A DNA stretch of 64,000 nucleotides, taken from Escherichia coli. Its GTDB lineage: Bacteria > Pseudomonadota > Gammaproteobacteria > Enterobacterales > Enterobacteriaceae. A program made the position numbers and the translations under genes. The DNA is taken from assembly GCF_003790525.1 (NCBI RefSeq), contig NZ_CP033635.1, one strand, 5' to 3'. How positions within the stretch are numbered: position 1 is the stretch's first letter; each line of letters starts with the position of its first letter. Positions 22,927 to 24,356 of the stretch are shown one piece after another. The notes under the pieces were generated by a model. That model ran no database searches and was not told the origin of the DNA. It was given only the letters and a program-made list of their open reading frames with translations.

Positions 22927-22959
22927 AAAATCATCACTTAACCAGAACGTGATGATTTT
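22927..22959. terminator. Conserved hairpin immediately downstream of the last immunity gene (candidate terminator)
   Basis: Perfect 11-bp stem aaaatcatcac/gtgatgatttt (22927-22937 / 22949-22959), 11-nt loop ttaaccagaac; A-tract in the stem gives U runs on both strands. Confidence 0.55.
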
Positions 22960-22983
22960 CAGGTGACAGATTCTGTTTAGAGT

Positions 22984-23274
22984 TCATTCTGAATCTTTGA
23001 ACAAAGACAATCCTTGCGAACGCCGCCATTCTTTGACGATTTTCAGGATGTTTTCAGGTTTACCATCTTCTGGGGAATTAGGATAGAAAATGAGATCTCC
23101 CTTTTTAGGATGTTCAGTAATTTTAATGAAATGATCCACTAAGGTATCGAGATATTTTTCTAATTTTTTCCCTTTTAGGGATTTATCTTTGCTAGTTGCA
23201 TTTACTATCTCCTCAAGCATTTCAAGAAATTCACCTTCTGTGTAAAAATATATTTTGTATTTTAAATCATGCAT
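22984..23274 (-). CDS. Im9/colicin-pyocin DNase immunity protein, orphan copy 3
   Basis: MHDLKYKIYFYTEGEF...EHPKKGDLIFYP...ENILKIVKEWRRSQGLSLFKDSE; start chosen at the second ATG (9 nt after aggag); the track start at 23280 is the alternative. Confidence 0.8.
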   Translation of the reverse strand: MHDLKYKIYFYTEGEFLEMLEEIVNATSKDKSLKGKKLEKYLDTLVDHFIKITEHPKKGDLIFYPNSPEDGKPENILKIVKEWRRSQGLSLFKDSE

Positions 23275-23280
23275 ATACAT

Positions 23281-23516
23281 TATCTCCTGTAGTGAATTTC
23301 ATCATGTAGTCGAGGCGTAACAATCCTTTAATTATCAATATCATAAATTTCGCCACCACATTCAATCGCAACACTATGATATATATGGAATTCTTTAACA
23401 ATTTCCTTAGAGCCATAATACCAACCTTCAAGAGGCGCTTTTGCGATTAATCCTTGTTTTATACGTGTTTGGTTACCAGTTGAAAACTGCGCTATCAACT
23501 CCGGATACTGACTCAC
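23281..23516 (-). pseudogene. Orphan HNH-DNase C-terminal fragment 2 (premature stop)
   Basis: Homologous to the last ~78 codons of the full-length toxin; TTA to TAA after DIDN; downstream remnant still encodes RIVTPRLHDEIHYRR in frame; no 5' toxin region or ATG. Confidence 0.7.
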
Positions 23517-23625
23517 CTCCAGCCAAAGGGTATCGGTGAAAGCGGGAAATTGATAAAATAACCTAATGAGATTTCAGTATTTTACCTGTTTTTTAAGAGC
23601 ACCCACATTATTATTTTATGTTATT

Positions 23626-23658
23626 AACATCATCGCATTAGCCAGACGCGATGATGTT
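23626..23658. terminator. Conserved hairpin downstream of immunity gene 2
   Basis: Perfect 11-bp stem aacatcatcgc/gcgatgatgtt (23626-23636 / 23648-23658), loop attagccagac. Confidence 0.5.
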
Positions 23659-23682
23659 CCATATATAGTTTTATTATCTACT

Positions 23683-23973
23683 TTATTTAGAGTCTTTAAA
23701 CAAGGGTAGCCCCTGTGAACGCCGCCATTCTTTGACAATTTTCAGGATGTTTTCAGGTTCATCATCTCCCTTCTTTGCAGGATAGTAGATAAGATCGCTC
23801 ATCAACGGATGTTGTGTAATTCTGGTAAGATGTTCTTCTAGATCATCCCAATATTTGTCAAGCTCTTCCCCTTTTAATTGAGCGTTATCCCCGGTTGGAT
23901 TTGTAAACTCGCCAAGCAACTCAATGAATTCCCGCTCTGTGTAATCTTCTATTTTATTTTTAAAATCATACAT
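23683..23973 (-). CDS. Im9/colicin-pyocin DNase immunity protein, orphan copy 2
   Basis: 96 aa, MYDFKNKIEDYTEREF...QHPLMSDLIYYP...ENILKIVKEWRRSQGLPLFKDSK; aggag 8 nt upstream of ATG. Confidence 0.85.
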   Translation of the reverse strand: MYDFKNKIEDYTEREFIELLGEFTNPTGDNAQLKGEELDKYWDDLEEHLTRITQHPLMSDLIYYPAKKGDDEPENILKIVKEWRRSQGLPLFKDSK

Positions 23974-24213
23974 TTAACTATCTCCTGTAATAAATTTCAT
24001 CATGCAAATGAGGTGTGCCCTCCTTAAATTATCAATATCGTAAATTCCGCCACTATATTCAATCGCAACACGATGATATATGTGGAATTTTTTAACGATT
24101 TCTTTAGTGCCATAATGCCAACCTTCAAGTGGTGCTTTTGCGATTAATCCTTGTTTTATACGTGTTTGATTACCGCTTGAAAACTGCGCTATCAACTCCG
24201 GATACTGACTCAC
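23974..24213 (-). pseudogene. Orphan HNH-DNase C-terminal fragment 1 (frameshifted)
   Basis: Homologous to the toxin C-terminus from LWLEVSQ onward; 1-nt deletion after DIDNLR puts the conserved HDEI(Y)YRR tail out of frame; begins only with GTG in LEV. Confidence 0.7.
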
Positions 24214-24323
24214 CTCCAGCCAAAGGGTATCGGTAAAAGCGGGAAAATGATAAAATAACCTAATGAGGCTTCAGTATTTTTACCTGTTTTTTAAGAGCAA
24301 TCACATTATTATTTTATGTCATT

Positions 24324-24356
24324 AATATCATCGCATTAGCCAGATGCGATGATGTT
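24324..24356. terminator. Conserved hairpin downstream of immunity gene 1 (one mismatch)
   Basis: aatatcatcgc / gcgatgatgtt with loop attagccagat; same element as at 23626 with a single stem mismatch. Confidence 0.45.

Follow-up and report, generated by a model that had tools for sequence, protein, structure and literature searches.

A conserved hairpin behind the immunity genes of a chromosomal Hcp-ET toxin/immunity island in Escherichia coli and Salmonella

A toxin/immunity island on the chromosome of Escherichia coli carries a short hairpin behind each of its immunity genes, which raises the question of whether this hairpin has a function of its own and, if so, at which level it acts. The island was analysed in a window of 64,000 nucleotides (contig NZ_CP033635.1, assembly GCF_003790525.1), which corresponds to E. 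coli SMS-3-5 (100% match). A preliminary description of this DNA had located three hairpins about 25 nt behind the immunity stop codons, taken compensated differences between them as evidence of selection and listed an attenuator, an mRNA-stabilising 3′ structure, a processing site and a DNA-level recombination signal as conceivable functions. According to the present analysis the hairpin is real, conserved and under constraint, and is an apparently undescribed component inside a known toxin/immunity island. Literature searches for a mention of the hairpin or of the immunity-only arrays of Salmonella described below found nothing, the available descriptions covering genes only.

All island genes are encoded on the minus strand, and the three hairpins were confirmed at the positions given in the preliminary description by sequence inspection, folding and shuffling. 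The hairpin behind the cognate immunity gene 1 (type A, internal; 24324-24356; covariance-model score 47.4 bits) reads AACAUCAUCGC-AUCUGGCUAAU-GCGAUGAUAUU on the mRNA strand and is composed of the arms 24324-24334 and 24346-24356. Its stem contains a single mismatch, which is C·A on the minus (mRNA) strand and a U·G wobble on the plus strand, and its best fold on the mRNA strand consists of a 10-bp stem and a 7-nt loop (-12.6 kcal/mol). The hairpin behind the orphan immunity gene 2 (type A, internal; 23626-23658; 51.4 bits) has perfectly paired 11-bp arms (23626-23636 and 23648-23658) and can be extended to a 13-bp stem closed by a loop of 7 nt (-17.7 kcal/mol). The terminal hairpin behind the last immunity gene (type B; 22926-22960; 54.2 bits), GAAAAUCAUCAC-GUUCUGGUUAA-GUGAUGAUUUUC on the mRNA strand, has an A-tract on one side and a U-tract on the other; its arms 22927-22937 and 22949-22959 form a perfect 11-bp stem to which a G-C pair at 22926/22960 is added as the twelfth (-17.4 kcal/mol). 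The co-directional gene pdhR follows ca. 400 nt downstream. In all three cases exactly 24 nt separate the 11-bp stem from the immunity stop codon (linkers 24357-24380, 23659-23682 and 22960-22983), and the folding z-scores on the mRNA strand range from -2.4 to -4.8.

By chance, such structures would be rare. Dinucleotide-shuffled versions of the intergenic island (4.4 kb, 200 shuffles) contain on average 0.04 stems of 11 uninterrupted base pairs with a loop of 3-15 nt, compared with two observed and a third with one mismatch. A covariance-model search of the entire window returned these three copies and no other, and no Rfam covariance model overlaps any of them at E <= 10. Perfect hairpins whose stem reaches 11 bp or more occur elsewhere in the window only at 10051-10078, 15343-15371, 34003-34032 and 37381-37406, where they presumably represent terminators of unrelated genes.

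Relatives were collected via homologues of the immunity protein, and all immunity 3′ ends detected by tblastn were kept whatever follows them, which provided 125 ends from about 60 loci. The island between aroP and pdhR is also found in many Salmonella enterica, a related island resides at a different locus in Superficieibacter and in a related metagenome-assembled genome, and more distant Hcp-ET islands adjoin gltA in Pseudocitrobacter-like genomes and in one Salmonella. The claim that a hairpin stands behind every immunity gene holds in the window, and its motif A[AC]ATCATC recurs at 110 of the 125 ends (E. coli, Salmonella and Superficieibacter), 24 nt past the stop codon in all but two, where the distance is 22 nt (one Superficieibacter copy) and 12 nt (locus L003). 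In the latter (L003:2611-2904, E. coli SSGNw1), the immunity stop codon TAA is changed to CAA, the protein is extended by three residues and the new stop lies 12 nt from the hairpin. The 15 ends without the motif comprise two truncated by contig ends, five terminal ends of Superficieibacter-type arrays, where another stem precedes a T-run, five ends of the Pseudocitrobacter type with a GCCGGATGATG...CATCATCCGGC hairpin resembling repetitive extragenic palindromic (REP) sequences in the equivalent place, and three of the Salmonella gltA-locus island. The REP-like hairpins follow immunity genes in gltA-nei Hcp-ET islands of Pseudocitrobacter-like genomes (L055:4279-4340, L055:4656-4710 and L057:4279-4330).

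Among 5426 E. coli genomes, the terminal type is present exactly once per genome in 1058, and the internal type occupies 2595 places in 1050, with 1-4 per genome and none on plasmids. Because these genomes carry the element nowhere outside this island, it is specific to this island family. Further sources added little to the collection. A metagenome scan with the conserved immunity 3′-end pattern gave 43 stretches, mostly chance matches in soil contigs, and the seven E. coli/Salmonella-like stretches contained no new hairpin variant; the same applies to the divergent E. coli islands H136 and H3. A peptide pattern derived from the immunity alignment hit a single irrelevant Pseudomonas locus among the genome contigs, and a blastn search of plasmids with the whole module found only one mis-filed 834-kb E. 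coli replicon, colicin plasmids being absent.

The hairpins are divided into two types. In E. coli and Superficieibacter, internal immunity genes are followed by type A (AACATCATCGC...GCGATGATGTT). Type B (GAAAATCATCAC...GTGATGATTTTC) stands at the end of the array, behind the last immunity gene, in both E. coli and Salmonella, and all internal immunity genes of Salmonella are followed by type B with a loop of 6 nt in place of 11 nt. The loop core ccaga regarded as common to all copies is indeed shared within the window; it is lost across the relatives, with loops such as GTTCTA, GTTCGA, GTTTTA and GTGTTA in Salmonella and one inverted loop. The hairpin type tracks the position in the array and not the immunity type, as one immunity type occurs with either A or B, and the last ca. 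45 nt of the immunity gene likewise track array position (the window versus L002, L003 and L088). Because hairpin type and gene end go together with array position, the exchangeable part is the toxin-tip/immunity core, and the hairpin is part of the scaffold.

Evidence for constraint is provided by the pairing pattern and by the conservation of the arms relative to their surroundings. In 21 distinct hairpins, 95.6% of the pair cells are standard pairs on the mRNA strand; at stem position 4, 14 hairpins have A-U and four have C-G, and at position 11 nine have A-U, six G-C and the other six the classical intermediate G·U. None of 500 shuffles matches the observed percentage paired or the covariation score, slid registers drop to 23-66% paired, and RNAalifold recovers the identical helix from the alignment. 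The two compensated differences described between 22927-22959 and 23626-23658 (A-T to C-G and A-T to G-C) were verified. Within the types the arms are ca. 95% and the linker 73% identical. Between types A and B, identity of the linker and the downstream flank falls to the random level of 29-30%, and the arms are 61-81% identical with pairing retained. The terminal arms of E. coli agree with those of five Salmonella lineages at 24/24, 24/24, 22/24, 20/24 and 24/24 positions, compared with 64-74% in adjacent non-coding DNA and 90% in the pdhR coding sequence; in some Salmonella enterica the entire terminal hairpin 22926-22960 is matched at 35 of 35 positions.

As to its function, we consider the chances about even that the hairpin is an mRNA 3′ or intercistronic stem-loop that weakly terminates transcription and/or holds up 3′ exonucleases. 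We infer both the action at the RNA level and the effect on termination or stabilisation. The stem-loop would form in the minus-strand mRNA 24 nt past the immunity cistron, in the 3′ untranslated or intercistronic region, and because of this distance to the stop codon the stem would be left unmelted by the terminating ribosome. It might then operate as a leaky intrinsic terminator and/or block 3′-to-5′ exonucleases, the latter stabilising the upstream immunity message, and would set how much transcription and message survives into the next orphan unit, so that the internal copies would grade the expression of the orphan units. The terminal type B copy with its A-tract, stem and UUUU might be the end signal of the operon and insulate the pdhR promoter located ca. 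400 nt downstream. The internal type A copies of E. coli, in which the U-tract is lost, would mainly be stabiliser or processing structures. An action of this kind is supported by the non-homologous hairpins that fill the equivalent place in other Hcp-ET islands, as in Pseudocitrobacter and at the array end of Superficieibacter. Among the four functions initially listed, the comparison with the colicin T1 hairpin (see below) favours the terminator/stabiliser end, and the recombination signal receives little support.

Several observations weigh against a terminator or stabiliser. The stems are AU-rich with 3-5 G-C pairs, and the internal E. coli copies lack a U-tract. As anticipated in the preliminary description, these copies are poor canonical terminators (tail UUAAUAAC), and neither in the window nor at the Salmonella locus L007 is any copy called by a simple consensus terminator scan. 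Literature searches for transcript 3′-end mapping (Term-seq, 3′ RACE) in island-bearing strains found none. The mRNA strand is favoured over the antisense strand (14 G·U cells, 6 mismatches and 95.6% paired versus 5, 15 and 92.1%); this lean corresponds to ca. 8 versus 4 independent events and is not significant. All double changes reflect the single split between types A and B; the compensated pairs and the conservation of the arms above the flanks stand, and the value of the covariation as evidence of selection is reduced by this common origin. Homologous copies with uncompensated stem mutations, named at the outset as the finding that would speak against a selected structure, do exist: the 3′ arm of the terminal copy in Salmonella salamae-type islands is decayed (GTGGTAGTTTG, -4.8 kcal/mol), as is an internal copy of L062 (-5.3 kcal/mol), and the copy most frequent in E. 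coli after the cognate immunity gene has the C·A mismatch on the mRNA strand. Finally, all 21 variants have the core A-ATCATC/GATGAT-T in common, a degree of sequence conservation that exceeds the need of a purely structural hairpin and could be attributed to a short time scale or to recognition of the sequence itself.

Part of these observations would be accounted for if the hairpin were a neutral palindromic relic without a function of its own, carried along with the tandem unit of ca. 698 nt in E. coli or 360 nt in Salmonella. Its uniformity would then stem from recent duplication, gene conversion and quasi-palindrome correction that mimics compensation; template switching in quasi-palindromes copies changes from arm to arm and can produce apparently compensated pairs. 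The origin of the double changes from one split, the lack of a significant strand asymmetry and the persistence of the decayed salamae-type terminal and L062 internal copies and of the mismatched copy 24324-24356 are consistent with a relic, as is a Salmonella locus (L064) in which the loop is reverse-complemented between unchanged arms, a DNA-level event. Moreover, the E. coli copies are at least 99% identical over ca. 1000 genomes and contribute little independent evidence. However, gene conversion or recency would also homogenise the linker and the flanks, which diverge (73% within types, ca. 30% between them) relative to the arms (95% and 61-81%, respectively). In three of the five E. coli-Salmonella lineage comparisons the arms are conserved above the pdhR coding sequence, and the 24-nt distance to the stop codon is fixed despite the changing linker sequence. 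On balance, we regard a mere relic as unlikely.

A stem-loop between two cistrons might also belong to the downstream unit, either as a 5′ stem-loop of a transcript from an internal promoter or as a translational control element of the next immunity cistron. Promoter-like sequences of the form TTTAAA-16-GATAAT are present over the immunity stop codons on the minus strand (24398-24371 and 23700-23673) and end 15 nt before the internal hairpins, but such matches are below chance frequency (10 found, 13.2 expected) and TTTAAA-16-GATAAT is absent from the Salmonella linkers. The hairpin of Salmonella ends 4 nt from the Shine-Dalgarno sequence of the next immunity gene, and in its minimum-free-energy fold a CUGUA/UACAG helix is added on the outside, in contact with this sequence; the outer helix lacks covariation, however, as ATGTA linkers occur together with an unchanged ACAG in Salmonella. 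Disruption of the colicin T1 hairpin has been reported to destabilise the downstream cel mRNA (PMC2896534), which would also fit an element serving the following gene. Considering that the terminal copy is the best conserved and yet has no downstream cistron, an assignment to the downstream unit appears very improbable.

The arrays of Salmonella introduce the possibility of a DNA-level role. They consist of 1-7 diverse immunity genes in a strict 360-nt period and lack toxin fragments (e.g. L007:4279-6377 and L062-L071). The 69-nt spacer is composed of the 24-nt linker, a 12-bp hairpin and TTCACTACAGGAGATAA, and is followed by the ATG of the next gene. The part behind the hairpin resembles the 3′ end of the toxin gene plus its Shine-Dalgarno sequence (score reached by 0/1000 shuffles), the similarity beginning at TGATGA inside the 3′ arm; from there onward the toxin-like part is mainly a Shine-Dalgarno remnant. 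According to the simplest reading of these sequences, the toxin fragment may have been lost in Salmonella through a deletion between the 3′ arm and a similar toxin end. A derivation of the arms themselves from the toxin 3′ end was considered and dismissed, since the arms alone are not significant (353/1000 shuffles score as well). The ca. 220 nt on the pdhR-proximal side of the terminal hairpin are common to the window and the Salmonella islands. In the copy of Salmonella enterica CP079837.1 homologous to 22926-22960 (L064:5371-5440), the arms are identical to those of E. coli and the 11-nt loop is exactly reverse-complemented (TTAACCAGAAC versus GTTCTGGTTAA), which is a DNA-level event, a clean inversion between the inverted-repeat arms. 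As separate observations, a Salmonella immunity array contains an inserted transposase gene of insertion sequence (IS) type (DDE_3), which truncates the second immunity gene (L010:5516-6547), and in several Salmonella loci (L072-L079) Hcp-ET is uncalled as an intact gene or split into two open reading frames while one immunity gene and the hairpin are kept.

The hairpin might be a DNA site. As a cruciform or single-strand hairpin it would signal recombination or mark a junction and promote the gain, loss or shuffling of toxin/immunity units, or it would be the palindromic operator of a DNA-binding protein. The toxin-loss junction inside the 3′ arm, the flipped loop of L064, the invariance of the ATCATC/GATGAT core in all variants and the nearly equal fold on either strand agree with this idea. 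It is countered by the absence of a recombinase or integrase from the island, which is directly flanked by aroP and pdhR, and by the absence of attC-type core sites. Ordinary unequal crossing-over between the direct repeats of 271-298 nt can alter the number of units, the breakpoints of the immunity types lie in an invariant 41-nt stretch near the 3′ end of the immunity genes and hence outside the hairpin, and the island boundary of the window is found ca. 220 nt past the terminal hairpin. For a dimeric DNA-binding protein, the spacing of the half-sites (6, 11 and 15 nt) is too variable to fit. We judge a DNA site to be quite improbable. In a more specific form, the palindrome would be a cassette-junction element at which template switching, deletion and inversion drive the turnover of toxin/immunity units and generate, for example, the immunity-only arrays of Salmonella; if true, it would constitute an integrase-independent counterpart of integron attC sites. 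Both the loop flip of L064 and the toxin-loss junction in the 3′ arm are compatible with such an element and do not require it, and we assign it a faint chance.

The toxin island extends over 4.1 kb (ca. 22710-26805) between pdhR (21764-22528, minus strand), the next co-directional gene downstream, and aroP (26975 onward, plus strand), the terminal hairpin being positioned between the island and the pdhR promoter. K-12-type strains lack the island and, between the boundaries at about 22710 and 26805, carry ca. 190 nt of unrelated sequence instead. The Hcp-ET effector (24668-26449, minus strand) combines T6SS_HCP, Pyocin_S and Col-Pyo_DNase domains (Hcp-ET3-4 type; Pfam E = 1e-12 to 1e-41). It is followed on the same strand by the cognate immunity gene 1 (24381-24665; PF01320, colicin/pyocin immunity family) and by two orphan units, in each of which a toxin C-terminal fragment precedes an immunity gene: the fragment 23974-24213 with immunity gene 2 (23683-23973), and the fragment 23328-23516 with the terminal immunity gene 3 (22984-23274). 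These toxin-fragment/immunity units are tandemly repeated with a period of ca. 698 nt. PF01320 is assigned to all homologues of the immunity protein, and the fusion of Hcp with Pyocin_S and a colicin DNase, with PF01320 immunity genes behind it, identifies the island as a known type VI secretion system (T6SS) effector/immunity locus of the Hcp-ET3-4 type. The corresponding locus of uropathogenic E. coli UTI89 (UTI89_C0121) encodes Hcp fused to Pyocin_S and a colicin DNase, and duplicated immunity genes come after the fusion (PMC6730261). The hairpins are present in the UTI89 genome, and the carriers also include the strains Nissle 1917 and NC101.

Two further observations concern the immunity genes. 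A stretch of 41 nt, CCTGAAAACATCCTGAAAATYGTCAAAGAATGGCGGCGTTC, is invariant at the DNA level near the 3′ ends of all three (24384-24445, 23686-23747 and 22987-23048), which are otherwise ca. 65% identical. The same stretch is invariant across all E. coli immunity genes and contains the breakpoints of immunity-type reshuffling; it probably serves as the homology arm on the downstream side when the specificity core is exchanged. A weak Rfam match to PhrS across the junction of the toxin and immunity gene 1 (24521-24708, minus strand; 21 bits versus a gathering score of 37, E = 0.034) is below the gathering score and almost certainly due to chance.

Provided that the hairpin acts as a leaky terminator or a stabiliser, it would set the expression level of each orphan immunity gene, and orphan immunity expression decides which foreign Hcp-ET DNase toxins a strain resists. 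The array is present in about a fifth of the complete E. coli genomes, UTI89, Nissle 1917 and NC101 included, and in many Salmonella. The hairpin also offers a simple, testable handle on the expression of T6SS orphan immunity arrays.

Comparison with known systems places the island among the orphan toxin/immunity arrays of polymorphic toxin loci, as found in Rhs, contact-dependent inhibition (CDI) and T6SS auxiliary clusters. For the hairpin itself, the sequence does not match the usual patterns of integron attC sites, REP elements and CsrA, LexA, Fur or PdhR boxes. In contrast to integron attC sites, types A and B lack the RYYYAAC/GTTRRRY core sites and have perfect stems, and the flanks are aroP and pdhR. 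Like the mRNA-stabilising hairpins of REP sequences and bacterial interspersed mosaic elements (BIMEs), the hairpin is a palindrome located between genes, where the cistrons of an operon end, and in Pseudocitrobacter the equivalent place is occupied by a REP-like hairpin. The island hairpin differs from REP sequences and BIMEs in being AU-rich, in lacking the GTAG/GCCGGATG REP consensus and in not being dispersed, with 1-5 copies per E. coli genome confined to the island.

Some features are shared with intrinsic terminators. The stem-loop follows soon after the stop codon, and type B has the A-tract/stem/U-tract symmetry of bidirectional terminators. With regard to a U-rich tract (about 5 of 8) directly 3′ of the stem, type B qualifies only if its four closing A-U pairs are counted towards this tract, which leaves a 7-bp core of -8.7 kcal/mol with the tail UUUUCACU (UUUUCACU/UUUUCGCU). 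The AU-rich stems reach -12.6 to -17.7 kcal/mol with few G-C pairs, and the E. coli copies have a long loop of 11 nt. Type A has no U-tract because the A-to-C/T-to-G change that kept the pairing removed it.

The nearest analogue is the T1 hairpin of the E-group colicin operons (ColE2/E7/E8/E9; cea-cei-T1-cel), which is reported to stop transcription in part and so to restrict read-through to the lysis gene, to bind CsrA with its loop together with the downstream Shine-Dalgarno sequence, and to shorten the life of the downstream cel mRNA when destabilised (PMC2896534). In the ColE2, ColE7 and ColE8 plasmids, T1 has a stem of 16 bp (ca. -20 kcal/mol), begins 5 nt past the immunity stop codon and is followed by TTTCACAACAAGGAG and the ATG of the lysis gene. 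Both the T1 and the island hairpin are stem-loops directly behind a DNase immunity gene of the PF01320 family, ahead of the following ribosome-binding site. In either case a short U-run, CAC..AGGAG and the start codon of the following cistron come next, and the weak U-tract of both is compatible with partial read-through. The Salmonella spacer shares the T1 layout, as the hairpin is followed by UUUUCACUACAGGAG / TTTTCACTACAGGAG and the ATG of the next immunity gene. On the other hand, sequence homology is not demonstrable, since only a 15-nt flank, TTTCAC.AC.AGGAG, can be aligned, with a score also reached by 22-26 of 500 shuffles. The 16-bp stem of T1 with its 4-nt loop 5 nt past the stop contrasts with the 11-13 bp of the island hairpin 24 nt past the stop. 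The T1 loop contains a GGA site for CsrA, which is missing from the island loops (GUCUGGCUAAU, GUUCUGGUUAA, GUUCUA and similar). The downstream gene is an immunity gene or an orphan toxin fragment rather than a lysis gene, and the island element is chromosomal, linked to the T6SS and present in up to 7 copies per array. The hairpin may accordingly be described as T1-like by position and form and not as a demonstrable member of the T1 family. Most likely, it belongs to the already known and in this respect unsurprising class of intercistronic terminator/stabiliser hairpins and is not a new kind of element; by analogy, it would add a chromosomal counterpart to the colicin T1 paradigm.

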